A DNA stretch of 64,000 bases from Spironucleus salmonicida (taxonomy: Eukaryota), in contig NC_090599.1 of NCBI RefSeq assembly GCF_000497125.1, forward strand, positions 682,001 through 746,000. The letters are read 5' to 3'. Made by a program: the position numbers and the translations under genes. How positions within the stretch are numbered: position 1 is the stretch's first letter; each line of letters begins with the position of its first letter. The notes under the pieces were generated by a model. The model ran no database searches, was not told the origin of the DNA, and saw only the letters and a program-made list of their open reading frames with translations. Shown here piece after piece: positions 1 through 63,517 of the stretch.

Positions 1-448
1 GCTCCAGCTGTGCCTGCTGCTGGGCGTGCAGTTCCTGCTCATGCTGTACAGCACGCTCTTCCTCGCGCTCTTCTTCCAGTTCGTCTTCAACTCCTTCGTC
101 GCCGCGATCGCCGTGTTCATGACCACCGTCAGCATCCTCTTCACCTTCGCCGGGCCCTACATCAACCCCAGCTCCGTGCCCTCCTACTGGAGCTGGATGC
201 CCTGGGTCAGCCAGTTCGCCTACATGTTCCGCGCCTACCTGTACCTCATCCTCCACGGCCAGGACGTGGTGTGCGACCCCGGCCAGAGCTGCCCGCTCGA
301 CTCGGGGGCCACCATGTTCGAGCTCTACGGGCAGCAGGGCTGGACGCTGCTCAGCGCCACGCTCACCAACGTCGGCTACACCGCCGGCGTGATCGCGCTC
401 TTCGCCTGCGCGTCCTACCTCATGCTGCGCTACCGCCGCTTCTCCTGA
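1..448 (+). CDS. ABCG transporter, 3' part (copy of 8536..10527), truncated by window edge
   Basis: Identical to the C-terminal TMD of the full copy; ends TGA. Confidence 0.9.
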   Translation, partial: LQLCLLLGVQFLLMLYSTLFLALFFQFVFNSFVAAIAVFMTTVSILFTFAGPYINPSSVPSYWSWMPWVSQFAYMFRAYLYLILHGQDVVCDPGQSCPLDSGATMFELYGQQGWTLLSATLTNVGYTAGVIALFACASYLMLRYRRFS

Positions 449-467
449 CGCTCCCTTCCACCCTACA

Positions 468-935
468 ATGAAGTTCGCGTCGCTGCTGGTGTTCGCCGCG
501 GCCCCGCTCGCCCTCGCGGCCCAGATGACCGTGATCTGCTCCGTGGTGCGGCTCATGCCCGGCTGCCCCGCCCCCGTGGACGCCTGGGTGGCCCTGCTCC
601 GCGCGCACGGCGCCTACAGGCCCACCGTGCTGCTCGGCTACGCGGCCAACCTCGCCGCCGTGGTGCACGCCCTGCTGCTGGCGGTGCTCTGGGGCCTCGA
701 GCGCCTGGCCCGCGCGCACCGCCGCTGCCGCCTCCCGGCCTACCTGCTCACGCTGAGCCTCTGCCTCTCGCTCGTGCAGGCGGAGTTCCGCACCGTGCCC
801 GACCTGCTCGTCGTGGTGCTCAACGAGCGCCTCCTGGCCCTCCTGCGCGCCGCCGCCCGGCAGCTCGGGGGGATCGCGGTGGCCGGCCGGCTCCTCCTCC
901 AGCAGGTGGGAGCGGAGGTGCTGGACGCCGAGTGA
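468..935 (+). CDS. Hypothetical multi-pass membrane protein, 155 aa (IR1 copy A)
   Basis: ATG after C-rich tract, strong GC3 bias, hydrophobic segments, stop in AGTGA. Confidence 0.7.
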   Translation: MKFASLLVFAAAPLALAAQMTVICSVVRLMPGCPAPVDAWVALLRAHGAYRPTVLLGYAANLAAVVHALLLAVLWGLERLARAHRRCRLPAYLLTLSLCLSLVQAEFRTVPDLLVVVLNERLLALLRAAARQLGGIAVAGRLLLQQVGAEVLDAE

Positions 936-1010
936 CCTCCTTTCCTCTCCCGCAACTTGTGGTTCACCGTACCGAATTCGCTTCGGGCACATATCCGCCC
1001 TCCCCGAAGA

Positions 1011-1175
1011 ATGGACGAGCGGAAGGTGATCCAGCCCAGCTACTCCGAGTACCAGCGGATGTTCGACGGCGACAACCCCTCGGTCACCGAGATCTCCGCG
1101 CGCGGCAGCCAGAGCAACCTGCAGGACATCCTGGACGCCAACCTGGACGAGGCCTCGTCGCTCGCCTCCGAATGA
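1011..1175 (+). CDS. Acidic microprotein, 54 aa, 'SYxEYxxM-DNPSV' family (IR1 copy A)
   Basis: CCCTCCCCGAAGA-ATG context, GC3 bias, similar to the 17060..17218 product. Confidence 0.65.
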   Translation: MDERKVIQPSYSEYQRMFDGDNPSVTEISARGSQSNLQDILDANLDEASSLASE

Positions 1176-1263
1176 TTATTTCTCTTGCGGTACTCCACGG
1201 GCTGGGCATGGACCGCGGCACGCACCGGCCCCTGACATCGCGGCCCATCCTCGCCCCTCCAAA

Positions 1264-2100
1264 ATGCGGCGCCCGCACTCCCCGGTCCCGACGCGCTCCC
1301 TCGGCCCCAGCGCCCCGGCCCGGCCCGCCACGCACGCCGCGCGCAGGGTTCCTATAAGTATTAGATCAGAATCTCCCGTTCTGGTGCGTCTGCAGAACAC
1401 AATAGAACACCACAAGCTCGAAATTCACAACCAGCACGGTGTGGCGTTCCGGAACATCCTGACGAAGGAGGACTTCACACAGTTGCAGTTCTACCAGTAG
1501 GAGCTAGTCGATTTCGCACCTCAGAAGACGAGCAGGATTTTGAAGAATTTGAAGGCCAAAATCCAGCCCAGTTTCCACTCGCAACACCTCATTTTTTACA
1601 AGGTAAACCCCATCGCAACTCACTAGCTGGTGAAGCACAAGTCGCTAGAGCTCACCCAGTACTCGTCATATTTTGTGGGAATCTTGAACTCGAATAAGTT
1701 AAACTTTATGAGAAAAATCGTTGCCCGCTTCAGCCAGATGAAACAGTGTGACGTCGTTCCACCTATTTCGGAGGCTATTATCAACCGCATAACGCTGGTT
1801 TTGCCGAAGAATCTCGGGCCACGGCTTCTGGAAAAGGCGCAACGTGCGCTAGCTGACATGCAGAAAGCGTTTACGCTACTGTTTTTTGATGGTGGTGAGT
1901 TCATGAACTACCTATTTTTTCTCAAGTGGCAACTAAAAGCGGCATGCTTCACACTGTACTTGAATGATATTTTTCCCATAATAAGCATTTACCAGCAGGC
2001 GAATTAGAGAATTTTGTACTATTAGACCTTTGTGGTAATCAGAAAGTTTAACAAGGTCGACTCAATTTTCGGGGCCTAGGGTGATATGGTGAATTAGTGA
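1264..2100 (+). CDS. Hypothetical protein, 278 aa; first 32 codons lie in the IR1 arm
   Basis: Track ORFs 1264..1500 and 1630..2007 join in frame with TAG=Gln; ends TAGTGA. Confidence 0.75.
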
Positions 2101-3227
2101 ATTAGGGGTAGCTGAGAAATGAAAATTTTAGTTTCGAGGCACAATAATAAAATAAGAGGTACGATTTATCTATGACTATTTATTAGCTATTAGTGGCGCT
2201 GAGTAGGGGAAATTAGTGTTTACGGCATTTAGTTAGCTAGTCATGTTGTTAAGTAAGTAAATAATTATATATAATAATGTTACATTATAATTATATAAAA
2301 TTAATTATTTACTTCATTTTAAGCTATTGTTTTCGTGGACATTTAGATTTCATTCTGGTAATTAAACTATATTTATAAATTTCTGAACCCTTTTTAAGAA
2401 TAGTTATAATACGAATCAAATAAGTGAAGTCTTAGCATTTATCATTATGTTACCAATAATATTATTGCTGGTTTCACTTTATAAAGAGGAGAAATTATAT
2501 AAAAACTAACTGCTTTAGCTTAATATGTATTGAATATAGTGATATTAAGTATAAATCATATCAATACTTCATAGCAATGGACTTGAATATTCTCCAGAGC
2601 TGAAGTGAGCTTATCAAGTTTTTAATTCAAAATTTGAAGCTTTGATGTCTCTATTAGAATCAGTATTTCTAGCTTATCTAAAAGTCTATCTATATTAGGT
2701 GGGAAGCTAATACTCTTTTGAATTTAACTAGGAGATTTTATAAATTTAGGAACTAAGCAAGCACTATATATGTCTAGTGGAGTATGTATGAATTGTTATT
2801 TCATTTTAGTAGGGATGTTTTGCTTTTATTATCGATGTGAAATCGGATATGAATTGTTTTCCATTTTCGTAAGTTATTAATTATAGATTCTTGATTATGA
2901 TTTTACGAGTCAATGTGTTTCCAATTTAAAAATATGTATTGCTTAAAATCAATAACAAAACAGATTGTATAAAATCTATTATTCTAAATTAGCTATGATT
3001 TTGTATATTTTACGAAAAACGAATACAATTACTTTTAATACATAGAATACATACTTAGTTAATATTAATAATAGAAACTTACTCAAATAACCCGGTATAA
3101 TTTGTTTTGCCAACGACGTAATAATGTTATATTATTAAAAAATTGATAAAATTTCGTGAAAAGATTATGGATTTATATTTGTTTCTACATTTATGAGTAT
3201 AAAATTTTCATAATTTTTAATAGCAAT

Positions 3228-5459
3228 TCACTAAAGAAGATTTGCCAATCCTTTTGGTGCAAATACAGGTAAGCCTTTCTCTCGATCAAATATCATAAAT
3301 GAATCTTCATAAAGATAGCACATATATATTGAATCAATTGTTAGCTGAACTATCCCTACTGTATAGTATGAAATAATGAACATTAATACAGATACAAGCA
3401 ATGACCCAGAAATATACAAATCCTAAAAGGGTGATGTATACCTAATAATAGCCCACGTACAAACGCCAGATCCTACAGCTATTAATAATTTTGCAAATGT
3501 TAGAAATATCCAGGATAAGAATTTAACACTCATGCTAGTAAAGAAAGACCCCATAGTTAGTTTCATTGAACCGCCTAGTGATTTAAAATAACCTACTCCA
3601 GTAATAGCGGAATAAATAACAACGTTTCTATTAATCCATTCTACTACTTTTTACAAGCATTTCAGGCAGCAACGAGCTACCTGGAATGCAGCTTTAATAA
3701 TTTTAGAATTAGCAATTTTGTTACTTAGTTCTAGTCGTCTTAAAACATATTCTAAGATCATTCTAATAAAAACAACTAAGCTAGTTATGAAACTGGCAAC
3801 AAGCAAGGTTCCCATATTTTTGATAACGCAAAGAATACTTTACTTGAAAACTCCTTTTGTACGTCTTTTATCAGAAAAGTACCAATAAGCTACGTGGAAG
3901 GAGATCATATACTATAGGCAGGAGTGAATGAAAAAGCTGCCCCAAATTACCATAAAAACGTATAATGCAAATAATGCGGTAGTACAGCCATTTTAAACTG
4001 TAGTTTGTACTCCATCTATTTCCGTGATGATCGTAAAATTAAACATATGACCTCTGGCATCATAATTACCACTCAGATAGTACATTAAAGCTATTCCACC
4101 AGTCCACACTAAATGACCTACAAAAATGACAACAAAAAATATCGGAATGAAAAATATATTGGGGACCTTTCTCATGCAGTCGACAGATGAAGCAATAACA
4201 GCGATTCCAACGCGGATTCCTTTGAAACAGAGAATAGCAAATAATAAGACCAACCCACCAACTATCGCAATAACGATACCGAGTGCCAGAAACAAATTCG
4301 CCTTATTCATGAGATCGGAGTCCACAAACCCGAAAAAGTCTATCGTGTTTTGGGCCGAAATTTTGAGCTGCAGCGAAAGTGAGATGAAGTAGTAGGCCCC
4401 AAACGCCGCCGCAAGCACAACAGCGATGATGGTGCCGTAAACAACGAATTTAACGATGAACCTGAGACAAACTAGATAAACCGCCGTTATCGCAATGCCG
4501 CACAGCAGCCCGTAAATGATCTGCAAATATGTCATTTTCACCTCAAAAGCGAAGCTTTGCATAACGCTGGCAACGAAACTGACGATTTTTGACAGCAGCG
4601 GCCCCACGACTGCGACGTTTTGGGCCTGCAAATTAACGCGCAAAACGCACTGCTGGACGCCGAGTTGCGCCAGGGGCCCCAGGAGCTCGTAATCGGTCCG
4701 CGCGCCCGAACCAGCGAATTTCTGGACGGGGACGCAGAAACCGCTCAGGAAGGTGTATTTTGGGTTCCCGGCCAGGAACGCCTGAAATTCGTCCGCGGGG
4801 TACTCAGATTTCACGCTTGCGGCGGAAATGCCGTCTATTTTTCCAGCAAAATCTACGAAATCAGCGCTGCAGAGCACCTCCGTCGTGGGCTGAAGCTGGC
4901 AGTCGAAATCTGAGCGCATGCAGACAGTGCCCCCGAGCCCCGCAAAACCGACGGCACGGGAGCTGAAATCGGTGCGCAGCGGTCTGATTTTGCGGAAAAA
5001 TGTGCGGGTGCGCGTAGGGTCCAGCCTGCCAGCGTCCGAGAGATCGCACGAAATGCCGCTTGCAGGGTGCAGTTTCTGGATCAGTTGGCAGAAATCTGGC
5101 ACCTGGGAGGGCGATAACATACGCGAATAGTCCGTTGCGAGGAAATCTGGCTGGTTTGGTAGGCCACAAACTCTCCTATTTTGGTCTGCCGGTCGGATTA
5201 TGAGCAGTATCTGGTCCGCATGCGTCCAGAGTTTGTAGAATACTGCAGAGCCCAGCATCGCTGCGAGCGCGAGCATAAAGATTATGGAGCAGAGGACGTC
5301 GCGAAATTTGCGCTGTTTGGGGCTCATAATGGGGGAGGCTGAAACAGCGTTTTGGGAGATAGCAGGTGATTCTGGCCCGCTGGGAACGTATTATGCCACG
5401 TTTGCCTTTACAGGTGTGAAAATTTGGCCCTGCGTTTAAAAATTGTCTATCTGTGTCAT
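3228..5459 (-). CDS. Choline transporter-like (CTL/SLC44) protein, ~743 aa
   Basis: RKFRDVLCSIIF, RPADQNRRVCG, many TM helices, WINRNVVIYSAITGVGYFKS. Track ORFs 3993..5327 and 3231..3419 fuse under table 6. Confidence 0.88.
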
Positions 5460-5694
5460 TTTAAAAAAGTGAACACTAATACATTGCTTTTATATTTTAA
5501 TGTTCGTGTATTATTATTGACAGAATAATCTGAGTACTATAGAAACTAAATAATTTATATTTAATATATAATAACCATTTATTAACAAAAAAATCTCAAT
5601 TTAACTATTCTAGTTTCTACGATATTTAGTATATAATACCTTCCAACGGAATTTTCAATCCCACGCGCAGTCCGCCCACAATTAAACCCAAATC

Positions 5695-7062
5695 TCACAT
5701 CCTGATCACCTGGTTTATGTCCTTTCCCTTCTCGTCGCTCCCCTTCCTTTTTTCCCAAAAAACACCATTTCCGCCCTCCCTAATTTCTCTAATTCCTCTA
5801 ATTTCTCCAATTTCCCCGCAAATGCAGAAAATCACGTCCCCGACGATCCCGAAACCGAGCAAATTGCTCCCAGGGAAGTTCGCGAAGCAGCTCGAAATCT
5901 GCTGCACGAGCATGATCTTCTGCTGGTTGAAAACGAGCTTCAGCACGAAGCCCGAGGACGCGCCCAGCAGGATGCTGCTAGCGTCGTTCTGCGCGATTTT
6001 CTGGATGCCGTAAATCGGTCGCTGAGCAGACGAAATCGCCGTTTCCGGCGCTAGCAGCTGCCCCAGGCGGCAGAAATACGCCGCCTGCAACGTCGTGCGG
6101 CTGAGCGTCACGCCGAAGCCCTGGAACGACGCCAGCACGAACGCGTCCGGCAGCTCCAGCAGCTGGTCGTACGTGTTGTCGTCGAGGTCGATTTCGGTGC
6201 TCGTCGCCAGGTCGACGAAGCGCGAGGGCTGCCCCGGGGCCTGCAGAACGATTGCGCCTGCCGAAACTGCCGAAATTCGGCCCTCGAACATGAGCCGTCG
6301 CTGGACGATTATGCTATCGATTACGCGCCGGTCGGTCTTGCAGATGAAGCCGATTTTGAGCTCCAGGAGGTCATTCTCGCCGAAGAATTGGCGGTTTTCA
6401 GCGTCGAAAAAGACGTCTTTGGAGACCAAATTGAGCAAAATTTCGCTGTCAGAAGCAGAAATTACGCAAATCAACCGCGGAATGACCTGAAAATCGAGCT
6501 TTATTAGGTCCAGCAGGTTCTGCGCGTGGAAACCGCTCGCAGTGAACTCTATCAGGAGAAGCGATACCGTTGTAGCGATAATGAGCGTATTGAGGGCAAA
6601 TTGTAGGTCGAAAACGTGCACGGGGCCCTTGTCGGAAGTGAGCTGGAACTGGTGCAGGAGCGTCGCCTGCGGCTTGGAAAAGCGCTGCTCCGCTGGCTGA
6701 TTAAATGCGCTTTGAGCGGTTTCTGGTTTTTTGAAAATGTAGCACTGGTTGTCCAGCGTCGCCGTCGCGAAATACGACTGGTTCGTGGCACACAGATACG
6801 GAACTGATGAGAATAATCGCTGATTTGTTGGAAAATTCGGTTTATTTGTTGGCTTCTGCTGTGTTTAGTCAGTAGGATATATTGGATGCACTTAGTATGG
6901 CGGGTTAGACTGATTTTGGGGTTATTCAACATAATTTCGTCTCTGTGGTTATTGGGTATATTATTATGGGTTTTAATATATTACTTCAGGCTATTAAGGA
7001 GCTTGGTGTGATCGTTGATCAGGTTAGTAGTTCTTAATTGGGTTTTTACCTAAGTATACCAT
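5695..7062 (-). CDS. Hypothetical protein, 455 aa; Q/P/N-rich N-terminus, possibly beta-propeller-like C-terminus
   Basis: Frame open from ATG 7062 to TGA 5695 with TAR=Gln. Confidence 0.75.
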
Positions 7063-7624
7063 TTTCGAGGTAAATTAAAACTATATAATAGTATAATAAT
7101 ATTGATTTACTTTTAATTAAGATTATTTAACAACGATATTAAATTCTTTAGTACTATATATTAAGTAAGCTACTTTATCTATAGATGCACTAAATATTTA
7201 ATTAAGGTGGTAATAAATAAACGAGATTCTAAATCATCCAAATATTAAAATAATGCTCAAAATAAAGCAGCATATTTATAATTAGATTAAATTTTATACT
7301 AGTCAGTCTATGTTTGAATCTACTAATGTAATAATATTTTAACGCTCAGAAAACTTTACTTACTCCCCCTGGCACGAAAAAGATAAATCTTATTTCACAA
7401 TACCTTTAGAGTACATTCTCCATTTATAATGAAACAATCTTAATGATGGTATTGACTTCTTAAACTCTTTATACTGTTGAACTGGTTAAGTAACTTATAA
7501 TTTTGCAATATTCATTTTCCATAGTGTATTTTATTATATAAATTTGTATTATAATAAAAGAAAAAACAAAATCAAAGAATGCTTATGATTAGAAATTTGT
7601 AAACGATGAGTTGACTGTCTGAAC

Positions 7625-7720
7625 ACTTATAGGAACCCTGCGCGCGGCGTGCGTGGCGGGCCGGGCCGGGGCGCTGGGGCCGAGGGAGCGCGTCGGGACC
7701 GGGGAGTGCGGGCGCCGCAT
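7625..7720 (-). pseudogene. Orphan 5' fragment (32 codons) of gene 1264..2100
   Basis: Identical start, then unrelated AT-rich sequence past the arm border. Confidence 0.6.
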
Positions 7721-7808
7721 TTTGGAGGGGCGAGGATGGGCCGCGATGTCAGGGGCCGGTGCGTGCCGCGGTCCATGCCCAGCCCGTGGAGTACCGCAAG
7801 AGAAATAA

Positions 7809-7973
7809 TCATTCGGAGGCGAGCGACGAGGCCTCGTCCAGGTTGGCGTCCAGGATGTCCTGCAGGTTGCTCTGGCTGCCGCGCGCGGAGATCTCGGTGA
7901 CCGAGGGGTTGTCGCCGTCGAACATCCGCTGGTACTCGGAGTAGCTGGGCTGGATCACCTTCCGCTCGTCCAT
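7809..7973 (-). CDS. Acidic microprotein, 54 aa (IR1 copy B)
   Basis: Mirror of 1011..1175. Confidence 0.65.
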   Translation of the reverse strand: MDERKVIQPSYSEYQRMFDGDNPSVTEISARGSQSNLQDILDANLDEASSLASE

Positions 7974-8048
7974 TCTTCGGGGAGGGCGGATATGTGCCCG
8001 AAGCGAATTCGGTACGGTGAACCACAAGTTGCGGGAGAGGAAAGGAGG

Positions 8049-8516
8049 TCACTCGGCGTCCAGCACCTCCGCTCCCACCTGCTGGAGGAGGAGCCGGCCG
8101 GCCACCGCGATCCCCCCGAGCTGCCGGGCGGCGGCGCGCAGGAGGGCCAGGAGGCGCTCGTTGAGCACCACGACGCGCAGGTCGGGCACGGTGCGGAACT
8201 CCGCCTGCACGAGCGAGAGGCAGAGGCTCAGCGTGAGCAGGTAGGCCGGGAGGCGGCAGCGGCGGTGCGCGCGGGCCAGGCGCTCGAGGCCCCAGAGCAC
8301 CGCCAGCAGCAGGGCGTGCACCACGGCGGCGAGGTTGGCCGCGTAGCCGAGCAGCACGGTGGGCCTGTAGGCGCCGTGCGCGCGGAGCAGGGCCACCCAG
8401 GCGTCCACGGGGGCGGGGCAGCCGGGCATGAGCCGCACCACGGAGCAGATCACGGTCATCTGGGCCGCGAGGGCGAGCGGGGCCGCGGCGAACACCAGCA
8501 GCGACGCGAACTTCAT
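8049..8516 (-). CDS. Hypothetical membrane protein, 155 aa (IR1 copy B; one L->R change)
   Basis: Mirror of 468..935. Confidence 0.7.
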   Translation of the reverse strand: MKFASLLVFAAAPLALAAQMTVICSVVRLMPGCPAPVDAWVALLRAHGAYRPTVLLGYAANLAAVVHALLLAVLWGLERLARAHRRCRLPAYLLTLSLCLSLVQAEFRTVPDLRVVVLNERLLALLRAAARQLGGIAVAGRLLLQQVGAEVLDAE

Positions 8517-8535
8517 TGTAGGGTGGAAGGGAGCG

Positions 8536-12196: not shown

Positions 12197-12327
12197 TTTC
12201 GGAGGGCAGTTGTATTTAAATAGGAGGAATTAAAAGCCTTTTGCGTATTTGTGTTTTAGCACAATATCCGAGCGTGGAGCAGAATGGGCGCGGCGGTATG
12301 ATGGGCAGGAGAGCGCTGCCGAGCCGC

Positions 12328-53391: not shown

Positions 53392-54496
53392 CTGAGATAC
53401 TAAATTTAATTTTTTTTGGAAGGTTTGAAGTTTTAAAAATATATAATAATAATATTAATTTTAAATTTGGGAAGGGTAAAAATATAAATTTGATAATAAT
53501 ATATAATAATTATGTTTGGATAGGGTTATTAGTGATCGAGGAAGGGAAAGCTATTAGATAATAAAGCACAGGTAGAGTGGTTTATCATAGAGGTTTGAAT
53601 GATTTTTTATGCAGTTAAACACGCAATTTCAGTAAAGTTAAGATGCCTTGCGTCAATGTAGGGGGGCTCTAACTATTAAAGGAAAGACGCAGCAAATTAC
53701 TAGTGTAGTATATTCTAAATATACCTAGTGGATTAGTTGATCGTGTGTTTGTGCATTAATCATCCCAAATGCGCCACTACTCAAATGCCGTCGCGAGGCC
53801 CTAGGATGGAGTGGTCATCCCCGTATCTGTGCAGGAATACCCGCAGCCATAAACGCTCTAACTTAGGAGAGAATGCCAGTTGTGTTGGGCCGCACTCCCA
53901 CGAATGCGTTTCTGCCTATAAATTTCGTGACTTTGAGCCGGCTAGGTGCGCTGGACTGAGGGTGCACCGGTGTAATTAGTAGTGCGTATGGGTATTGCGA
54001 CTTTTTGGATCCTCACCCTTACTGCTCCTTTTTACGGTCCAGGGTCAGCTTGCATTACCCATACATGGCGCTGCTAGGAAAGGAAATTCCAGCAGGTGTG
54101 GTGCATTTGGACAGGCTCTTGCAAGCTCTGGACCTGGCCCACGTACTTCGGAGAAATTGCACATTACGGAGGCTTGGCGAGTCTTGCTCAGGACATTGTA
54201 TCCTGGACACCCCAGAATGCTGCCAAGGTCAGCGTGTATGCAATCTGCAGCATGGAGGCAGATGCAAGAGTACTGCCTGCAATGGAGCTACTGGCCTTAC
54301 TGTGGTAGATGGCCATGCGCAGGTATCCCATGCCCTCCAGGACCACCAACGTAGCCTCATGTTAGCGCCCATTCCCAATATCCTGCCGCAGCGCATCCGT
54401 AGATCGGCCTTTGCACTTCTCTCAACAAATAGTTGCAAGTCAGGAATTCGCATCCACCCCACTCATCTCTATAGGCGTCCACAGTGATAACTTCGC

Positions 54497-55063
54497 TCAG
54501 ACCCCGACCAGCTGCCTGGCACTGGTGACCTCGCTAGCGGCCCGGACCGTGCCCTCCTACTCCACGAGCAGCACGCCCCCGACGACGTCCACCACGGTCC
54601 CGATCGTGAAGGCGCGGCCCAGCATCCCGCAGAGCGCGCGGTACTCTCCGTCGCGGACGCCCAGGGCCTCCCGGTACACGCGCTCGGCCAGGTCCCGGGG
54701 GCCGGCGTCCCAGCGGGCGGTCGCAAAGTCGGGGACGGGGACCAGGTTGACCCCCAGCCCGACGTAGCCCACGCCGCCCGCCTGGTGCTCCAGGACGCCG
54801 CCGCACTTCCCGCCTGGCAGGAGCAGGTCGTTGGGCCACTTGAGTGCGGCGCCCAGCAGCCGGGCCGCGGCGACCGCGACGTGCGTGAGGTCGAAGCGCC
54901 GCGTGACGAAGGTGCAGTGCAGGCTGCCGGGGGTGGACTGCCAGGGCCCGGTGCGGCCGACGCCGGCGGTTTGCCGGAGGGCCAGCACGACGGTCTCGGG
55001 CGGGTGGGCAAGCGCCTCGTCCATGGTGGAGGCGAGCTCCGCGAAGACGCGCAGGCGGGGCAT
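54497..55063 (-). CDS. Biotin protein ligase (BirA/BPL catalytic domain), 188 aa (IR4 copy A)
   Basis: STMDEA, QTAGVGR, WQSTPGSL, KWPNDL, KCGGVL, GLGVNL. Confidence 0.9.
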
Positions 55064-55156
55064 TCTGGGCGTAGCGCGTAGGGCCGGGTGGGGTTATTAT
55101 GTGGCGAATTGCATATAATATCCGAATGGGATTTCATTTTTCACCTCCCCTGCACC
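55064..55156. promoter_or_regulatory. 93-bp bidirectional promoter region BPL/RPL18a (mirror 60064..60156)
   Basis: Head-to-head ATGs; AT-rich core with a C-rich tract before each start. Confidence 0.6.
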
Positions 55157-55672
55157 ATGAACCAGTACGAAATCTGCGGCAGACAGCTCAAGAACGCCCC
55201 CGTTGACGCCCCCGTCTTCAAGATGACCATCTTCGCCACCAACGACATCATCGCCGAGTCCCGCTTCTGGTACTTCCTCAACTCCCTCCAGCGCATCAAG
55301 AAGTCCAACGGCCAGCTCGTCTCCATCAAGAAGGTCACCGAGGACGACTCCACCGTCCGCACCTACGGCATCACCATCCGTTACCGCACCCAGGTCGGTC
55401 ACCAGAACCAGTACCGCGAAATCCGCGAGACCACCGCCGCCCGCGCCATGGAGAAGCTCTTCTCCGTCATGGCCGGCCAGTACCACATCCGCTATCAGGA
55501 CGTGCAGATCATCAAGTTCGACATCGTCAAGAACGAAGACGTTCGCAGACCCATCGTCATGGACGTCATCCCCGGCGACCACAACGGCAACAAGGTAGAG
55601 TTCCCCCACTACTTCCCCGTTTCCACCTGCGTTCGCGCTTCCCGCAAGGCTATCTTTGTCGCCAAGCACTGA
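55157..55672 (+). CDS. RPL18A: 60S ribosomal protein eL20/L18a, 171 aa (IR4 copy A)
   Basis: FKMTIFATNDIIAESRFWYFL, KKSNGQLV, HQNQYREIRE; highly biased codons, no TAR codons. Confidence 0.96.
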   Translation: MNQYEICGRQLKNAPVDAPVFKMTIFATNDIIAESRFWYFLNSLQRIKKSNGQLVSIKKVTEDDSTVRTYGITIRYRTQVGHQNQYREIRETTAARAMEKLFSVMAGQYHIRYQDVQIIKFDIVKNEDVRRPIVMDVIPGDHNGNKVEFPHYFPVSTCVRASRKAIFVAKH

Positions 55673-55704
55673 TTAAATTATCTCACTTCTCCGTATATAT
55701 CGTA

Positions 55705-56826
55705 TCACACTTGTTCACGCACAACTCTGATTCCACAAACTTCCCAAACATTCGACTCCTAGTGAGGGACACCATCCATTCGGCATATCTTATCCAGCAC
55801 CTCACCCTGCCGAATTGCATGAGGAATTTCTAGTAAAATGCATTATCCAATATTTGTTCTAATACAAATTTTATTTTCGTTATATAAACTTATAGAAATC
55901 GGTCTACCGTCAAACTATTATTGAAATTTTGGCCAAAGTTCGACTGAATTTTCTATTTTATAACACCAAACTCTACCATTTAGCTCAGCTAGTATAACCA
56001 TCCCATCTAATAATACGCATTTTCTTCGATTTTTAACTAATTTATCTTCAAATGGAATTTACTCTTAGTTTTTAGTGTTCAAATTATAAAGTAGGCCATG
56101 TTCAGTAACAACAATAGGAAATTTAATTTGATCTATAGATACTAAATCAATTGAATGTATAGCTTTAATTATTAATTTATTTATATCTATTTCATATACA
56201 TCACCATTTTCTGTACCTAAGAATAAAGATTAGTCATTAATATCCCATGTTGTAATAAATTCTACTAATTTAATACTTTATAATTCATGAACATTTTCAT
56301 AAATAGTAGTCTCACATATGTTATCACTTTAAGTAATGGCTATGAATTTATTTTGATGTTCAAAACAGAATACTAGATTTTTAATTTTTAATTCTGATTA
56401 TTATTGTGTCTATTCTTATAAATTTTCTATATTCTCTAATATCTCATTACCTAATATTTTAACAAGTTTCCTAATGTTAATATTTTTCACTAAAGGTAGA
56501 AGTGCATTTACTTGATTTTCGGATAATTCATTTAACAATTTATCAGTCATTAAAATTTCATCCTTTTTAGAGTAAGTGTTACTATTCATTACCCTCCTAA
56601 TATCTCTTATTTCATCATTTTCAGGTAATGCAGAAGTTGTCAAAATCGATTATAACAAATCTTCACAGTTTTGTGCAATTTACGATTGTTCAAGTTCATT
56701 GACATTGTATGGTTTTTCAATAGCAGAAAATGTCAACAATTTTTGATCATCCGATTATTAAGATCTGCGTTATAAGAATTCTTATTTCTTTTAATCAAAT
56801 GATTTAGAAGAGTTTGAATCTTACAT
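55705..56826 (-). CDS. Hypothetical protein, 373 aa, possibly WD40-like C-terminal half; last ~39 codons lie in the IR4 arm
   Basis: Open frame from ATG 56826 to TGA 55705; LFLGTENGDVYEI, ILAELNGRVWCY. Confidence 0.7.
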
Positions 56827-57603
56827 TATAAAAAGTTGCAACTATTTATATAATAATATAAAATGTAAATCTATCCTAACTCTAGTAATCGTCTATGAAA
56901 TAAAATATAGTCAAATAACAAATATACTCAGTATTATAGAAATAGATACTATTTATTGAATCATATACTCTTATCTGTTAAGTCGAAGTATTAAAATAAA
57001 ATTATATAGTTATATAGGTAATTAACTTACTACCTTTATTTAACGTGGGCTCTAAGATTGTATTTAACATTTAAGAAAAATAATAAAATTGTGACAAGCT
57101 TACTGGTTGCGTTTATATTAGCGTATTGTATAAATGTCGAATAAAATGATATTGATAGAAGACTATATTAAGATACTCTTAATATTATACCTATATGTCC
57201 TATATAAATTAATTTTTTAGAGTACTATCACATTTTTTTGTTTTTGTTATTTATTATAGTCTATAGAATTCCATGAATTAAACCATGATTACTTTCAACT
57301 GAATCCTGATTTTAATTTCCTCACAACAAATCAAGGTTAAATATATATATAATAAATTAGGCCTTTCTTTAATCTCGTCTACTATTCGTCTATTTTATAT
57401 TTAAACAGAACCTGTTAAGATTGATAAAAATTAACAATTAATATTTTAAAGTGTATGTATTTTGTTTTTACGGCCATATTAGCACTAAAATATGATGTAA
57501 ATAGGCATAAATTAATCTTTTAGTATTCATAGAGATTAACTTAATAAGATTTGTGCAAAATTTAAACTAGAAAAAAATACTAATATAATTTCATAATCAT
57601 CAC

Positions 57604-57825
57604 TCAATAAGACGGTGCAATAATTGGATTAGACTACATAGCAAATGTGCAAAACCAAAATAGCCAGAAGCAGCAAACTGTACCTATAACAGTGACTAAA
57701 ATTGTTGATAGATGTGTTTTATTCTTGAAGAAGCAAGGTATAACGCATAATACTATCCCTACTAATACAAAAACACCCGTGGTTATGCCAAAAAGGGATG
57801 CATCAATACGAAATTCCTAGGTCAT
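57604..57825 (-). CDS. V-ATPase V0 subunit e (Vma9/ATP6V0E-like), 73 aa
   Basis: Two TM helices; TVCCFWLFWFCTFAMQSNPIIAP matches the CCxLxWxxTxxxQxNP motif, with the conserved Q encoded by TAG. Confidence 0.88.
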
Positions 57826-57878
57826 TTATTTGATTAGATTGGAATGAAAAATAGTATATTTAATATTTAATATTAAAA

Positions 57879-59063
57879 TCATTATGTAAACGCTAACATG
57901 CATGTTATATTATCAGTGCTTCCTAACCAATAGGCCATTTTTACTAGAACTTAACACATTCTTTTTTCTAGTGGGGCCTTTGGATCAATATCACACACGT
58001 TATGACCTCTATCTGGTGGTAGTCCTGTTAATTTTTTAATTCCTAAGTCACCACTTCGTGCATTTCCAGAACAATAATTTATAGCTATTTCAGATAAATC
58101 TTTATTCTCACCTTATTTAGCCTATGTGAGACCACTTTTCATTGACTTGACCAATATATCTACTTAGTCGTTTGAAAATATATTAAATAATCCATCGCAA
58201 GCAATTAAAATATAGCTAATCTCATCTAGAGGATAAACATTAACATCAGGTTCACAAATAACACCAAACTATTTTAATACATTATCACCAACTGCTCTAC
58301 TTAAACTTAGAACTCCTTATACTCTAGAAATACCAAATTCCCGACTAATAAATACACCTCTTATTTTCTTAAGACGCTCAATTTCGCTTTTTTAATCTGG
58401 TGAGTGATCTTCTGTTGCAATAATACTTTAACTTTTCATGCCTAAAATAACACGGGAATCCCCAACATGATTAACATACACTTATTATTCATGAATAATA
58501 ACACATGAAAGAGTACTACCTTATTCGTCTAAAGACCTGTTGGAACACACTTTTGACTCCAAAAATTGAATTGACTATCTGATAGAATCTTCTACGTTTC
58601 CTTAACTCATAATAGAAGTAAAAACTAAGCTTGGGTATATTTATGCTGCTATTTTAGATACTCTAGCCCCACCATGTCCATCAAAAATGGCAGCAACTTA
58701 AATATTATTTTATGTTTACACTACTTCAGCATCTTCATTCGAGTACCTTCTACCTTATATTGACTCAAAATGAAAATCCAATATATCTTTTTGATCCACT
58801 ATGGCTGGTTACTATTATTTTACCTATAACCTTGAAGCTGACCTTGGTTTTTACTATGAAGAAACAGTTTGAGAAGATAAATAGGGAGATTTTGTGGTGT
58901 ATGCTGATTAAATTGTTGAACGTGTACCATTAATTAACACTGCACGTTTGGGAGGATAATTTGTAAACGATGTTGGTACTGGTATATTAAAAATGCCAGT
59001 TTTATTTAAAGGTGGTAGATTAGAAGCTGTTCGCGCTTGTGTAATGTTGCGGGAATGTTGCAT
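57879..59063 (-). CDS. Protein phosphatase 2C (PPM), 394 aa
   Basis: QGRRYSNEDA, IFDGHGG, GST, HVGDSR, DHSP, LSLSRAVGD, ACDGL, GSTDNIT. Confidence 0.95.
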
Positions 59064-59396
59064 TTTTTAGAAATATTTCTAAATTATTATATCAATTATC
59101 ATAATAGTATCAATTATTTCTTTAATATTGTATATATAGGAAACATGTTATTGTCAAGTCTAAATAGTATCACCTACTGAAATATAATAAGTCTGTTAAT
59201 ACTTAATATATGTATAACAAGAACTAAATTTCCATCAACACTGATAGAAAACTAAAATAACCTAAATCTACGTATTCCTAAAATAACTTTTTAAAATTTC
59301 TATATATATATTACTATACAGTCAGTCTTAATAAAATTAATTATCTAAAAAAGCAATAATAAATTTCTAAATAAAATAATACGTTTGAAGTAGTTA

Positions 59397-59515
59397 CTCA
59401 TGCAATTCGGCAGGGTGAGGTGCTGGATAAGATATGCCGAATGGATGGTGTCCCTCACTAGGAGTCGAATGTTTGGGAAGTTTGTGGAATCAGAGTTGTG
59501 CGTGAACAAGTGTGA
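59397..59515 (+). pseudogene. Orphan 3' fragment of gene 55705..56826
   Basis: Arm border falls inside the CDS; no matching upstream part here. Confidence 0.6.
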
Positions 59516-59547
59516 TACGATATATACGGAGAAGTGAGATAATTTAA

Positions 59548-60063
59548 TCAGTGCTTGGCGACAAAGATAGCCTTGCGGGAAGCGCGAACGCAGGTGGAAA
59601 CGGGGAAGTAGTGGGGGAACTCTACCTTGTTGCCGTTGTGGTCGCCGGGGATGACGTCCATGACGATGGGTCTGCGAACGTCTTCGTTCTTGACGATGTC
59701 GAACTTGATGATCTGCACGTCCTGATAGCGGATGTGGTACTGGCCGGCCATGACGGAGAAGAGCTTCTCCATGGCGCGGGCGGCGGTGGTCTCGCGGATT
59801 TCGCGGTACTGGTTCTGGTGACCGACCTGGGTGCGGTAACGGATGGTGATGCCGTAGGTGCGGACGGTGGAGTCGTCCTCGGTGACCTTCTTGATGGAGA
59901 CGAGCTGGCCGTTGGACTTCTTGATGCGCTGGAGGGAGTTGAGGAAGTACCAGAAGCGGGACTCGGCGATGATGTCGTTGGTGGCGAAGATGGTCATCTT
60001 GAAGACGGGGGCGTCAACGGGGGCGTTCTTGAGCTGTCTGCCGCAGATTTCGTACTGGTTCAT
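59548..60063 (-). CDS. RPL18A: eL20/L18a (IR4 copy B)
   Basis: Mirror of 55157..55672. Confidence 0.96.
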   Translation of the reverse strand: MNQYEICGRQLKNAPVDAPVFKMTIFATNDIIAESRFWYFLNSLQRIKKSNGQLVSIKKVTEDDSTVRTYGITIRYRTQVGHQNQYREIRETTAARAMEKLFSVMAGQYHIRYQDVQIIKFDIVKNEDVRRPIVMDVIPGDHNGNKVEFPHYFPVSTCVRASRKAIFVAKH

Positions 60064-60156
60064 GGTGCAGGGGAGGTGAAAAATGAAATCCCATTCGGAT
60101 ATTATATGCAATTCGCCACATAATAACCCCACCCGGCCCTACGCGCTACGCCCAGA

Positions 60157-60723
60157 ATGCCCCGCCTGCGCGTCTTCGCGGAGCTCGCCTCCACCATGGA
60201 CGAGGCGCTTGCCCACCCGCCCGAGACCGTCGTGCTGGCCCTCCGGCAAACCGCCGGCGTCGGCCGCACCGGGCCCTGGCAGTCCACCCCCGGCAGCCTG
60301 CACTGCACCTTCGTCACGCGGCGCTTCGACCTCACGCACGTCGCGGTCGCCGCGGCCCGGCTGCTGGGCGCCGCACTCAAGTGGCCCAACGACCTGCTCC
60401 TGCCAGGCGGGAAGTGCGGCGGCGTCCTGGAGCACCAGGCGGGCGGCGTGGGCTACGTCGGGCTGGGGGTCAACCTGGTCCCCGTCCCCGGCTTTGCGAC
60501 CGCCCGCTGGGACGCCGGCCCCCGGGACCTGGCCGAGCGCGTGTACCGGGAGGCCCTGGGCGTCCGCGACGGAGAGTACCGCGCGCTCTGCGGGATGCTG
60601 GGCCGCGCCTTCACGATCGGGACCGTGGTGGACGTCGTCGGGGGCGTGCTGCTCGTGGAGTAGGAGGGCACGGTCCGGGCCGCTAGCGAGGTCACCAGTG
60701 CCAGGCAGCTGGTCGGGGTCTGA
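60157..60723 (+). CDS. Biotin protein ligase (IR4 copy B; one D->G change)
   Basis: Mirror of 54497..55063; reads through TAG 60661. Confidence 0.9.
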
Positions 60724-63517
60724 GCGAAGTTATCACTGTGGACGCCTATAGAGATGAGTGGGGTGGATGCGAATTCCTGACTTGCAACTATTTGTTGAGA
60801 GAAGTGCAAAGGCCGATCTACGGATGCGCTGCGGCAGGATATTGGGAATGGGCGCTAACATGAGGCTACGTTGGTGGTCCTGGAGGGCATGGGATACCTG
60901 CGCATGGCCATCTACCACAGTAAGGCCAGTAGCTCCATTGCAGGCAGTACTCTTGCATCTGCCTCCATGCTGCAGATTGCATACACGCTGACCTTGGCAG
61001 CATTCTGGGGTGTCCAGGATACAATGTCCTGAGCAAGACTCGCCAAGCCTCCGTAATGTGCAATTTCTCCGAAGTACGTGGGCCAGGTCCAGAGCTTGCA
61101 AGAGCCTGTCCAAATGCACCACACCTGCTGGAATTTCCTTTCCTAGCAGCGCCATGTATGGGTAATGCAAGCTGACCCTGGACCGTAAAAAGGAGCAGTA
61201 AGGGTGAGGATCCAAAAAGTCGCAATACCCATACGCACTACTAATTACACCGGTGCACCCTCAGTCCAGCGCACCTAGCCGGCTCAAAGTCACGAAATTT
61301 ATAGGCAGAAACGCATTCGTGGGAGTGCGGCCCAACACAACTGGCATTCTCTCCTAAGTTAGAGCGTTTATGGCTGCGGGTATTCCTGCACAGATACGGG
61401 GATGACCACTCCATCCTAGGGCCTCGCGACGGCATTTGAGTAGTGGCGCATTTGGGATGAATACACAAGCAGTTGGATAACATTATAATTAAATTAATAA
61501 TAGGGATTCTCTTAATCAACAATATTACTTTCATTGCCATTTCATGGTAATATTTCTATTTGGTGTGAATAAAATTCGATAAATTTACATAAAAATAAAT
61601 TTTATTTACTTGGGTGTTGGAGTAATATGGTGGATTTCGTATAATGTCCACTGTAATATTATTTAATATCAGGAATTACTAGTTAGATTAAGTGTAAGGG
61701 AAATATATAAGGTATATTCATATTTATAATATATTTAGGCAGTGATGTTAACGGTATTATTTAGAAAACTTGTCAAGTGAAGTAAATTTTGGCCAAAATA
61801 AATTTTTATTTTCTATTACTAATATATAATATAACATATATTAACTGTATATCTAAAATAATATTAAATGGGTTTAGATGTTGATTTGTAGATATGTCCT
61901 ATATTATGAAATAAAACGAAGAAATTGAAATTATATTGATTAATTTTACGTTGGTTTCAAATTCATTAATGTTAAGGAGCAAAGTTGAAATATAAAAAAG
62001 TATTTTATTCTAGATTTCTGTTATTATTAATTTTATCATAATAAATAATCATGAAATAAGATTTTTGATTCTATTAAATTATTGTAGATAAAATAGAAAG
62101 AGCAAAAACAAAACTTCAGTGAAGGTTTTTGATAAATACTGATGTAGTAATTCGCCAGATTCGGACTTAATCTAAATTTATTCGATTTTATATTGTTTTT
62201 AATTTCATATTGTTTAGTATTTTATATTCAATATATATCAGGTATTTATCGAGTAATCTAATCTACTTCTAAGGATGATATTCATTGAACCTTTTAGCAT
62301 ATCCATAGCTTCAATGGATTCTAGAAGAATGCTGATGAGAGTATAAGAAGTAAATTTTTCACCCATTTGAGCTATCAGATGTAATTTTAATGATGTATTT
62401 TTATACAAAATTAAACCCTGTAAAATAGGAAGCGAATTCATCAAGAATTTTGGAAGCAGACTTTGTTCTTAAAATAACAATAATAATTAAACTTGAAATT
62501 ATAATAATTTTCATAAATAATTAATTTAATTCATATGAGTCAGCTATAAAAATCATAAAAATCAAATTTTATCATTATTTCAAATAAAGTTTAATATAAA
62601 ATTCATTCACATAAGATACTATATAATCTGAGTATATCTTTCTATGGCTAACATTTCCTTAGTATAGTATCTGTACATGTAAAGTCACATGTATTATTCT
62701 ACTAAGAATTTATTATACACACCTCGTTACTTTTCAGTTGACTAATGAACTATACGTTAGTCTCTGTTATATTAATAATTTCTTTCGGGGTAAGTTAGCT
62801 TTAAACATTCTTTTCAAGATTCGATATTGACTAACCCATTTTTGAATTTTATTATTGATATATATTGTAATATATTAGAGATATAGTAATTCTAATTTAG
62901 ATATAGGTTGTTATTATATTTACTTTCATATTATCATTCTACATAAATAATCTGATAATCATATTTTACCTATCATTAAATACTATGTACTCAACAAATG
63001 TATATATTAATTTATGTTTAATATACAGTATTATATAAGTTAAACTAATCTATATACATTTTTTAATTGACTCTTAATATTATATACATAGTTATATTTA
63101 ACAAATCAAATCTTAGAAAGTTAATATTTTTAAATTTTTAGTGCATTAACGATCATACATTACAGTTTTAATTATATATTTAGTTTCATCATATTCATCC
63201 ATACATATTATATTACGGATCTTAAATATTACTCCTGATTCAACTTATACTATACTTTAAATACATTGCCTTTTACATCTTTATTAATACTTAAAACTAA
63301 AATGCTACTTCAATTTTTAGTTTTATATTTATAACTTGATAATAATATTTATTTATAATAAAACTTCTTTGAACATAGACTATTATACCTTAGTCCTCCA
63401 TATAGTAAAATATTAGTTAAAAACTTTTGCAGATATCACCCATACTTAAGTAACCTTTCCCTTTGCGGTAAAATTAGATATATCTGATTTTATACATTTA
63501 TACGTATTTTACAATTA

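Follow-up and report, generated by a model that had tools for sequence, protein, structure and literature searches.

Inverted Repeats and Their Genes

The window (the whole stretch analysed, 64,000 nt) is nuclear DNA of Spironucleus salmonicida. A search for repeats of at least 60 bp revealed exactly four inverted pairs, IR1 to IR4, with arms of 1.4–4.4 kb separated by spacers of 2.0–6.3 kb (6259, 1961, 3825 and 3557 nt; Table 1). No direct repeats and no further inverted repeats of at least 60 bp were found in the window, indicating that the four pairs have no sequence in common. Both the pairs and their unrelatedness had been claimed in an earlier note made from the sequence alone, and the arm ends given by the repeat tool reach only 3–8 nt past the coordinates reported there. 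Arm sequence makes up 19,520 of the 64,000 bases (30.5%), close to the third that had been claimed. The arms of IR1 to IR4 differ at 2, 1, 5 and 5 positions in full tool coordinates, and at 1, 0, 5 and 1 positions within the tighter limits of the earlier note, giving 7 mismatches in 9,743 bp (0.07%). With an identity of 99.7–100% (divergence 0–0.26%) the arms are therefore near-identical, as noted before, and not identical.

Table 1. Coordinates of the inverted repeats in the window and of the genes within and beside them.
Feature	Position	Strand	GC or GC3	Location and remarks
IR1 left arm	1..1362			Truncated by window start; repeat search, 2 mismatches
ABCG gene, 3' end	1-448	+		IR1 left arm
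155-aa ORF	468-935	+		IR1 left arm
Gene	1264-2100	+		Starts in IR1 left arm, extends into spacer
IR1 spacer	1363..7621		GC 0.40
Choline-transporter-like gene	3228-5459	-		IR1 spacer
455-aa gene	5695-7062	-		IR1 spacer
IR1 right arm	7622..8983			Demonstrable part
ABCG gene, complete	8536-10527	-	GC3 0.98	Pfam-confirmed
IR2 left arm	11671..16091			1 mismatch, at arm edge
Right-flank gene, 3' fragment	11671-11754			IR2 left arm; last 28 codons
Two small ORFs	11966-12199, 12331-12555	-		IR2 left arm
[2Fe-2S] ferredoxin	13308-13643	+		IR2 left arm
358-aa membrane protein	13849-14925	+		IR2 left arm
132-aa ORF	15071-15469	+		IR2 left arm
208-aa ORF	15459-16085	+		IR2 left arm
IR2 spacer	16092..18052		GC 0.20
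IR2 right arm	18053..22473			Mirror copy of left arm
Membrane protein, second copy	19219-20295	-		IR2 right arm
Ferredoxin, second copy	20501-20836	-		IR2 right arm
351-aa flank gene, single-copy	22390..23445	-		Last 28 codons inside IR2 right arm
IR3 left arm	28020..29921		GC 0.72	5 mismatches
262-aa cysteine-rich membrane protein	28385-29173	-	GC3 0.97	IR3 left arm
93-aa Sm-like ORF	29214-29495	-	GC3 0.91	IR3 left arm
122-aa ORF	29513-29881	-		IR3 left arm
IR3 spacer	29922..33746		GC 0.28
IR3 right arm	33747..35648			Mirror copy
IR3 right-arm ORFs	34495-35283, 34173-34454, 33787-34155	+ (all)		Mirror copies
IR4 left arm	53757..55831			5 mismatches, 4 at edges
140-aa ORF	54065-54487	+		IR4 left arm
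Biotin-protein ligase (BPL)	54497-55063	-	GC3 0.95	IR4 left arm; Pfam-confirmed
Ribosomal protein L18a	55157-55672	+	GC3 0.90	IR4 left arm; Pfam-confirmed
373-aa gene	55705-56826	-	GC3 0.19	IR4 spacer
IR4 spacer	55832..59388		GC 0.27
PP2C phosphatase	57879-59102	-	GC3 0.19	IR4 spacer
IR4 right arm	59389..61463			Mirror copy
L18a, second copy	59548-60063	-		IR4 right arm
BPL, second copy	60157-60723	+		IR4 right arm
140-aa ORF, second copy	60733-61155	-		IR4 right arm

Most of the cargo proposed earlier was recovered, with L18a, BPL and ABCG identified by Pfam and the ferredoxin by its match to solved structures (E 2.7e-11); the proposed Sm protein gave only weak matches (LSM, E 0.13 in Pfam; SmD3, E 0.2). 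None of the 50 ORFs queried against Pfam matched a transposase, integrase or reverse transcriptase, as the absence of transposases noted before had indicated, and no common end motif was found at the arm junctions. The IR2 spacer contained no convincing ORF and had zero depth in both RNA-like runs, and RNA-like contigs over the IR3 spacer were sparse and patchy, one of them spanning the right inner junction. RNA-like contigs over the IR2 membrane-protein gene reached depths in the thousands, contig depth being a poor measure of expression.

The demonstrable arm of IR1 contains only the last 448 nt of the ABCG gene, and its boundary cuts a gene, leaving a 5' fragment at 7622-7720. GC-rich DNA that includes the complete ABCG gene extends past 8983 as far as a GC step at 10695, presumed to be the true arm end. 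This step suggests arms of approximately 3.1 kb that are truncated by the window start, in line with an earlier suspicion that IR1 is longer than could be seen. The four pairs are best explained as inverted segmental duplications that are independent of one another, involve ordinary nuclear genes and each enclose a unique 2–6 kb spacer.

Physical Structure of the Palindromes

Short-read contigs from four runs (DNA and RNA-like) were compared with IR2 and IR3, two of the four pairs, and every arm junction of both was reproduced by DNA and RNA-like contigs. In two DNA runs the contigs stop exactly at 18056 and 22473 (IR2) and at 28020 and 29921 (IR3), while the spacer contigs (16060-18085 and 29892-33776) overlap the arms by 30 nt at each end. 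Each outer arm end is joined by two different flank contigs, whose loose ends match the other flank exactly when reverse-complemented. The IR2 arms had approximately twice the depth of spacer and flanks (16.4 vs. 8.6–8.7 in run X1; 24.8 vs. 11.3–11.6 in X3). The IR3 arms were not doubled (0.8–1.0x in X1, approximately 1.5x in X3), which may reflect coverage bias at 72% GC. The collapsed IR3 arm contigs of two runs carry different letters at 28783 and 29749, indicating that both arm variants are present in the reads. The DNA runs may share the source sample of the window, making this comparison independent of assembly method and not of strain. The palindromes are real chromosome structure, as observed on IR2 and IR3.

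Base Composition of Arms, Spacers and Flanks

The arms of IR1 to IR4 had GC contents of 0.69, 0.55, 0.72 and 0.60, compared to 0.40, 0.20, 0.28 and 0.27 for their spacers and 0.42 for the whole window. Non-ORF DNA within the arms was 0.50–0.68 GC, against 0.20–0.26 in seven non-coding background stretches. Median GC3 was 0.90 for arm ORFs (n = 15) and 0.53 for ORFs outside (n = 14; Mann-Whitney p = 1.3e-4), with one arm ORF read in the wrong frame, an error that acts to weaken the contrast. Third codon positions in the arms were up to 0.90–0.99 GC, and first and second positions were also raised.

The homology ends are abrupt jumps from about 20–30% to 55–75% GC, and the change falls there rather than at gene ends. 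Seven GC steps, defined as a change of at least 0.35 between 200-bp windows, were found in the 64 kb. Five had an arm end no more than 60 bp away, a sixth was 67 bp from one, and the seventh lay at 10695, the presumed end of the truncated IR1 arm. When 14 positions were drawn at random 20,000 times, this agreement was never equalled. No arm contained an AT-rich terminal stretch of at least 100 bp. All 1-kb bins of at least 0.53 GC were in an arm, adjoined one or covered the presumed IR1 extension (9001-10000). Bins of 0.52–0.53 were arm bins with two exceptions, one within the IR1 spacer (6001-7000, 0.523) and one across the presumed end of the IR1 arm (10001-11000, 0.526). The GC excess closely tracks the arms.

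The earlier claim that the arms are far more GC-rich than spacers and flanks stands in general, and fails at two of the 14 boundaries, 1362 and 22473, where single-copy GC-rich DNA extends past the arm. The step at 22473 is only 0.05–0.08, and GC3 in the 351-aa flank gene declines stepwise outward (0.96, 0.79, 0.52, 0.40) over approximately 900 bp. This region is an unbroken, single-depth short-read contig, and no partner homology was found for a decayed partner of the flank. The outer-left and inner-left boundaries of IR4 show modest steps of approximately 0.2.

Discussion

On the possible genome-wide architecture proposed in the earlier note, the literature gives the extent of duplication: regions duplicated over 2 kb or more at 95% identity or more account for 19.2% of the S. 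salmonicida assembly, most of them the length of a single gene, and average 44.7% GC vs. 30.7% (PMC9509377), with orientation unmentioned in the available text. The genome also has GC islands with sharp shifts from 30 to 70% and some GC3s values near 1, which their authors found hard to explain (PMC1805757, PMC2874811). Both would be the same phenomenon as the arms, seen from two sides. An inverted arrangement of duplicates, gene conversion between duplicates, and homology ends tied to GC steps were not found in the available S. salmonicida and S. barkhanus literature, nor were palindromes in the part of it searched for them; supplementary tables may list orientations. The GC islands and GC-rich duplications are already published; we found no paper on the inverted arrangement or the conversion mechanism for S. 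salmonicida.

On balance we favour, with modest confidence, the reading that the inverted duplications are old and that G/C-biased gene conversion has kept the two arms of each pair alike. Conversion between arms, which the earlier note proposed as keeping them identical, accounts best for the GC pattern; it is something we infer from that pattern, and a reading as recent duplication survives beside it. The arms of each pair would repeatedly repair and copy-correct one another by intrachromosomal, non-allelic conversion, with heteroduplex repair preferring G/C over A/T. Such repair would counter the AT bias of mutation only in sequence present twice, raising GC in the arms and leaving spacers and flanks rich in AT. 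Inverted pairs would be retained because recombination between their arms can do no more than flip the spacer, while between direct repeats it removes a copy. An adaptive role would not have to be invoked; doubled dosage would be a by-product, whether of consequence or not, and the dosage and repair-template benefits suggested in the earlier note are putative. Three of the five IR3 mismatches are in the 105 bp at the outer edge of the arm, which would fit conversion losing strength towards arm edges, and the higher GC of the published duplicated regions also counts for GC-biased conversion. GC3s exceeds 75% in 14 S. salmonicida genes and in none of their S. barkhanus orthologs, often at small dN (PMC2874811), indicating that the high-GC state is derived in S. 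salmonicida. Conversion between arms cannot act beyond homology, and the GC-rich flank at 22473 therefore needs an extra assumption: the arm may have been shortened by deletion of its partner, or allelic biased conversion may have acted around a hotspot. The modest steps at the two left boundaries of IR4 and the undoubled depth of the IR3 arms also weigh against this reading.

The main alternative is that the GC islands came first, from another cause (for example regional mutation bias, or biased conversion at allelic recombination hotspots), and that their inverted copies are very recent, the arms being alike through youth rather than homogenization. The boundaries at 1362 and 22473, with GC-rich single-copy DNA past the arm on the side of the intact gene, fit a breakpoint inside an older island better than they fit conversion. 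The tiny arm divergence agrees with this, as do the genes cut at boundaries (fragments 11671-11754 and 7622-7720), typical of fresh segmental duplications, and the duplicated 19.2% of the assembly could mean a high rate of recent duplication (PMC9509377). However, at the other original-side boundaries that can be observed, GC changes right where the homology ends, and no arm terminates in an AT-rich stretch of at least 100 bp, neither of which is expected from random breakpoints around older islands. Nearly all GC-rich 1-kb bins also lie in or beside arms or the presumed IR1 extension. Copying of older islands also leaves their origin unexplained, as did the 2007 and 2010 papers (PMC1805757, PMC2874811), and we consider it possible but rather unlikely.

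Selection on the cargo, with GC raised by codon or expression optimization and two copies kept for dosage, both adaptive, appears improbable. In its favour are the ribosomal protein L18a among the cargo, the deep RNA-like contigs described above over the IR2 membrane-protein gene, and the non-random codon use of high-GC3s genes in the 2007 survey (PMC1805757). Against this, the non-ORF DNA of the arms is also GC-rich, indicating together with arm GC3 a regional effect that goes beyond codons; GC3 is 0.95–0.98 in a biotin ligase and an ABCG transporter; and GC ends with homology, not with genes. Highly expressed S. salmonicida genes have mixed optimal codons, many preferred ones ending in U, with GC3s centered near 0.4 (PMC1805757), so in our reading translational selection points the opposite way. 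Insertion of mobile or foreign GC-rich cassettes as inverted pairs is very improbable: the composition contrasts sharply with the host background and the genome has many lateral transfers (PMC1805757), but the pairs share neither sequence nor end motif, carry none of the mobile-element enzymes searched for and include a eukaryotic ribosomal protein. False palindromes made by a long-read assembler, or chimeric reads, are the least credible source. Such similar arms are hard to assemble and IR3 lacked clear doubling, but contigs of four runs give all IR2 and IR3 junctions, the IR2 arms have doubled depth, a few sites distinguish the arms with both variants seen, the spacers are long and unique, and the genome authors reported long-read and optical-map validation (PMC9509377). 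For IR2 and IR3 an artefact is close to refuted.

Mammalian sex-chromosome palindromes have inverted, gene-bearing arms of more than 99.9% identity around a unique spacer, and their conversion is reported to be GC-biased. The pairs described here share the inverted gene-bearing arms and unique spacer. The mammalian arms measure 10 kb to Mb on a non-recombining chromosome, carry testis genes and show a slight GC gain, in contrast to kb-scale arms in a tetraploid protist where GC roughly triples. Higher GC in plastid inverted repeats is explained by copy correction biased towards GC. Genes moved into them evolve with slower substitution and higher GC (PMC5010901). Plastids differ in having one large pair per organelle genome, in the many copies of that genome and in the small size of the GC effect. 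The analogy with both systems, drawn in the earlier note, is apt as a way of working, and inverted vsp pairs of Giardia are the closest published relatives. Giardia intestinalis WB has 14 identical inverted vsp pairs and G. muris seven, and identical vsp genes of G. intestinalis were found only in this arrangement (PMC2996952, PMC7641422). Giardia and Spironucleus belong to the same protist order; the vsp pairs are head-to-head or tail-to-tail, 2,190–3,847 bp apart (1,961–6,259 bp for the S. salmonicida spacers), and have flanks identical up to an abrupt divergence point. They differ in their surface-antigen cargo, compared to housekeeping cargo here (L18a, ferredoxin, biotin ligase, ABCG), and in the available text no GC shift is reported for them, whereas the S. 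salmonicida arms are multi-gene with extreme GC contrast. If true, the reading preferred here suggests that GC-biased copy-correction between arms made the long-unexplained GC islands of this genome.

Results

Inverted Pairs and Their Ends

A repeat scan of the window revealed four pairs of arms (IR1 to IR4), each pair lying in reverse-complement orientation on one molecule around a spacer of unique DNA. The arms are 1,362–4,421 nt long with 1–5 mismatches per pair, giving the organization of chromosomal palindromes, and they make up 30.5% of the window. Alignment of arm with arm gave 2 mismatches for IR1, 1 for IR2 and 5 each for IR3 and IR4, several of them in the final bases added by the repeat tool; the tighter arm limits used in the earlier note leave 7 differences over 9,743 bp. 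Three of the five IR3 mismatches lie no more than 105 bp from the outer edge, with one internal mismatch in IR1, one in IR4 and none in IR2, all of these numbers being very small. Besides the four pairs the whole window contained no repeat of at least 60 bp, direct or inverted. The earlier note had described near-identical, reverse-complement arms of kilobase scale that share no sequence between pairs, and this was borne out on both counts.

Coordinates of the inverted repeat pairs in the window, from the repeat scan (the start of the window truncates the left arm of IR1)
Pair	Left arm	Right arm	Orientation	Spacer (nt)
IR1	1-1362	7622-8983	inverted	6259
IR2	11671-16091	18053-22473	inverted	1961
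IR3	28020-29921	33747-35648	inverted	3825
IR4	53757-55831	59389-61463	inverted	3557

The true arm length of IR1 is probably about 3.1 kb, running to position 10695, because GC-rich DNA with a complete ABCG gene follows the right copy as far as that point, where GC content falls sharply.

Comparison of the flanks showed that homology is lost abruptly at the arm ends, leaving no residual similarity. The final 28 codons of the gene in the right flank of IR2 recur as a fragment at 11671–11754, and the opening 33 codons of the gene at 1264–2100 recur at 7622–7720. Since genes are cut by the arm ends in this way, each pair arose by the copying of a segment, with one side recognizable as the original. 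Inspection of the 14 junctions by eye gave no shared motif or microhomology. Arms that had shrunk, leaving decayed homology beyond their ends, were also considered; the matches in the flanks, at about 60% and in both orientations, were all AT-rich and of low complexity, and no decayed partner sequence was detected past any boundary.

Base Composition

The GC content of the arms is 0.55–0.72, compared with 0.20–0.40 for the spacers and 0.20–0.26 for seven non-coding background stretches. Arm genes have a G+C content at third codon positions (GC3) of 0.90–0.99 in IR1, IR3 and IR4 and of 0.57–0.96 in IR2, while genes outside the arms gave 0.18–0.65, with medians of 0.90 and 0.53 respectively (p=1.3e-4). 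Arm DNA that lies in no ORF has a GC content of 0.50–0.68, and GC1 and GC2 are raised in the arms too, so that the rise extends to all site classes, as would be expected of GC-biased gene conversion.

The boundaries were compared with abrupt changes of GC, measured in 200-bp windows. Five of the seven sharpest steps in the window lie no more than 60 bp from an arm end, another lies at 67 bp and the last falls at the presumed arm end of IR1; none of 20,000 random sets of 14 positions equaled the arm ends for nearness to the sharpest steps. The step was 0.40 or more at six of the 14 boundaries and 0.27–0.30 at another five; two had a step of about 0.2, and at 22473 it was 0.08. The earlier statement that arms are far richer in GC than spacers and flanks holds at most boundaries, with exceptions at 1362 and 22473, where GC-rich DNA is not limited to the arm. 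Beyond 22473 the high GC reaches into the single-copy gene at 22390–23445 (−), in which GC3 falls gradually over about 900 bp from 0.96 at the 3' end, within the arm, through 0.79 and 0.52 to 0.40 at the 5' end; position 1362 is a milder case of GC-rich single-copy DNA past an arm end. The amino acid composition of the gene at 22390–23445 (−) shifts alongside GC3, from Ala/Glu/Arg/Leu-rich to Gln/Ile/Asn-rich. The spacer of IR1 is unlike the other three, with a GC content of 0.40 compared with 0.20–0.28, and contains two full genes (3228–7062) with GC3 of 0.48 and 0.64.

Support From Short-Read Contigs

Contigs from four runs, two of DNA and two probably of RNA, were compared with positions 16060–33790, which contain one arm each of IR2 and IR3 together with their spacers, so that these two of the four pairs were covered; the runs may share a sample with the window assembly and are independent of the assembler, not of the strain. 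Each arm was recovered as a single contig ending exactly at the arm ends (18056–22473 for IR2 and 28020–29921 for IR3), each spacer as one contig with a 30-nt overlap with the arm at either end, and two different flank contigs join each outer arm end. Base by base, the unplaced contig ends match the reverse complement of the opposite flank in the window. Such a pattern is what short-read assembly graphs show for a genuine inverted repeat.

Read depth gave a divided result. The IR2 arms have 1.9–2.2 times the depth of spacer and flank, but the IR3 arms, at 72% GC, reach only 0.8–1.5 times, a value not counted as evidence; the shortfall may reflect GC bias of coverage. Two of the five variable sites of IR3 carry different letters in the collapsed arm contigs of the two DNA runs, which places both arm variants among the reads. 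Over the spacer of IR2 (16092–18052), with a GC content of 0.20, depth is zero in both RNA-like runs, and both arms lie under contigs of depth 140–4,800; RNA is the presumed source of these runs, and contig depth is a poor measure of expression. With zero depth over the spacer there is no sign of read-through that would give a long hairpin RNA.

Gene Content of the Arms

Reading frames were set by GC at the codon positions and by exact matches to deposited proteins. Using the diplomonad code, in which TAA and TAG encode Gln, 14 of the 20 ORFs looked up matched deposited proteins exactly (6/10 and 8/10), all on one contig of 1,696,856 bp. Together with the L18a match given below, this identifies the window as nuclear DNA of the salmon parasite Spironucleus salmonicida. 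The IR1 arm carries an ABCG half-transporter and a 155-aa ORF, and the IR2 arm an adrenodoxin-type [2Fe-2S] ferredoxin, missed by Pfam and recognized by a PDB sequence search, with a 358-aa membrane protein and several small ORFs. Of the ORFs in the IR3 arm, one encodes a cysteine-rich membrane protein of 262 aa, one of 93 aa is weakly Sm-like and another has 122 aa. The IR4 arm contains a 140-aa ORF, biotin-protein ligase (BPL) and an ORF 98% identical to Spironucleus salmonicida L18a. The cargo listed in the earlier note is correct for L18a, ferredoxin, BPL and ABCG, but the Sm protein has a weak match only. Its observation that transposase is lacking agrees with the Pfam scans, in which none of 50 ORF queries matched a transposase, integrase or reverse transcriptase. 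No tRNA genes or Rfam families were found in the window.

Several features of individual cargo genes were also observed. An ABCG protein search returned no other S. salmonicida ABCG within the length range, the nearest relatives having 42–48% identity over about half of the query. Two tandem, diverged ORFs of about 75 aa each lie in the IR2 arm at 11966–12199 (−) and 12331–12555 (−), mirrored in 21589–22178; both open with MR[KQ]RRLHAL and have GC3 of 0.96 and 0.85 respectively. The 262-aa protein of IR3 (28385–29173 −, 34495–35283 +) ends in a membrane helix followed by the short, basic tail RRARRD, and resembles the diplomonad cysteine-rich membrane proteins. Its arm copies correspond to two deposited proteins of one 90% cluster, which fits the mismatch at 28783. 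A third copy of L18a lies outside the window on the same contig and, as the 2014 annotation numbering suggests, a few genes past the right arm of IR4. It is the same as the arm copies over residues 1–164, only the last 7 residues differing, with changes of A to T, A to I and H to Q; a difference confined to these residues suggests that another duplication boundary may lie close to the 3' end of L18a.

Discussion

The GC excess follows the homologous segment at most boundaries and is seen in every class of site. Biased arm-to-arm conversion is most likely how these palindromes work: the arms would copy-correct each other by non-allelic gene conversion, with heteroduplex mismatch repair favoring G/C, so that only duplicated DNA would escape the drift of the genome toward A/T. 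As proposed, this process would explain why GC steps and homology ends coincide in both copies, why arm DNA is GC-rich even where it is non-coding, why the GC state is derived relative to S. barkhanus and why duplicated regions show their published excess of GC. If GC rose after duplication, nearly all AT-ending synonymous sites were replaced in arms that are still 99.7–100% alike, and concerted evolution would be demonstrated. A survivor effect probably explains why the pairs are inverted: exchange between direct repeats deletes a copy, while exchange between inverted repeats flips the spacer. The exceptions at 1362 and 22473 need an extra cause, since arm conversion cannot act past homology; part of the partner copy may have been lost, or recombination near the pairs may drive allelic biased conversion as well.

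The main alternative is that the islands are older than the duplications, hotspot GC islands having existed first and then been copied in inverted orientation recently. This would account for both exceptions, at 1362 and at 22473, but gives no reason why the other breakpoints on the original side coincide with island edges, and we consider it unlikely. Selection on codon use is much weaker as an explanation of the arm genes, because non-coding arm DNA is GC-rich too and the optimal codons of the species center on a GC3s of about 0.4. The same grading applies to an artefact of assembly, against which the short-read contigs reproduce the junctions of IR2 and IR3; the earlier view of the palindromes as real is upheld for these two pairs, apart from the IR3 depth, which is not doubled. 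A mobile element is likewise a much weaker explanation: the pairs have no shared sequence and their junctions no common motif, the Pfam scans of 50 ORF queries gave no transposase or integrase, and the organization is not that of a transposon or composite element.

Biased arm-to-arm conversion bears on observations that have been in print for some time. A 2007 survey reported sharp GC shifts from about 30% to almost 70%, with high-GC3s genes in specific regions, and described mutational and selective scenarios as poor explanations of them (PMC1805757). In a 2010 comparison, 14 S. salmonicida genes had GC3s above 75%, compared with none of the S. barkhanus orthologs, often with small dN, and the pattern was judged very difficult to explain (PMC2874811). 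Both papers regarded the sharp shifts, and the genes with GC3s near 1, as peculiar. The 2014 genome gave GC contents of 36.2% for coding and 25.4% for intergenic DNA (PMC3916229), and the chromosome-scale assembly of 2022 assigned 19.2% of the genome to duplicated regions 2 kb or longer with 95% identity or higher, mostly one gene long, with a mean GC of 44.7% compared with 30.7% (PMC9509377). The word 'inverted' does not occur in the main texts of the 2007, 2010, 2014 and 2022 papers, nor 'palindrom' in those of 2014 and 2022 (PMC3916229, PMC9509377); the search covered main texts, and the supplements may give orientation. Our literature search found no paper that joins Spironucleus with biased gene conversion, and no mention of an inverted duplication or palindrome in the diplomonad papers searched.

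Palindromic duplicates homogenized by conversion with a GC bias are of a known kind, and both identical inverted gene pairs in diplomonads and GC-rich duplicates in S. salmonicida are already in print. Giardia contains 14 identical inverted vsp pairs, 2.2–3.8 kb apart with abrupt divergence points (PMC2996952), and G. muris has seven (PMC7641422). The pairs described here are alike in having near-identical inverted ORFs, head-to-head or tail-to-tail, and abrupt flank divergence, with spacers of 1,961–6,259 nt compared with 2–4 kb in Giardia. In contrast, the Giardia cargo is variant surface protein, while that of S. salmonicida is L18a, BPL, ABCG, ferredoxin and others, only the 262-aa protein of IR3 looking like a cysteine-rich membrane protein. 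Apparently new, in that we did not find them in print, are the organization of local S. salmonicida duplicates as inverted pairs of housekeeping genes, the coincidence of homology ends with GC steps and a proposed mechanism for the old GC-island puzzle. The GC effect was rated unusually strong for palindromes of this kind.

In the window, GC islands and the arms of the inverted duplications are one and the same, and at most ends they agree to tens of bases. The GC puzzle is thereby opened to a simple and decisive calculation from public data. That this identity extends to the whole genome is a tentative proposal, which we regard as possible though not yet probable: the GC islands of S. salmonicida would be arms of near-identical, largely inverted duplications, in which intrachromosomal and probably mitotic GC-biased conversion would have brought synonymous sites close to fixation for G/C (GC3 0.9–0.99) since the split from S. 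barkhanus, against a neutral GC of about 20–25%. If biased conversion is the cause, its local GC effect here is among the strongest in any nuclear genome, and it acts on ordinary genes, alters their amino acid make-up and does not need meiosis. Were the genome-wide reading true, S. salmonicida would offer a natural system of kilobase resolution in which to gauge how strong biased conversion is in the absence of meiosis, and one diplomonad-wide mechanism of duplication and repair would be suggested behind both the Giardia inverted pairs and these palindromes. Codon-usage outliers of the S. salmonicida genome should not be taken as lateral transfers or expression signals, and the presence of identical genes in pairs makes it harder in this fish pathogen to knock genes out, to map reads and to count copies.
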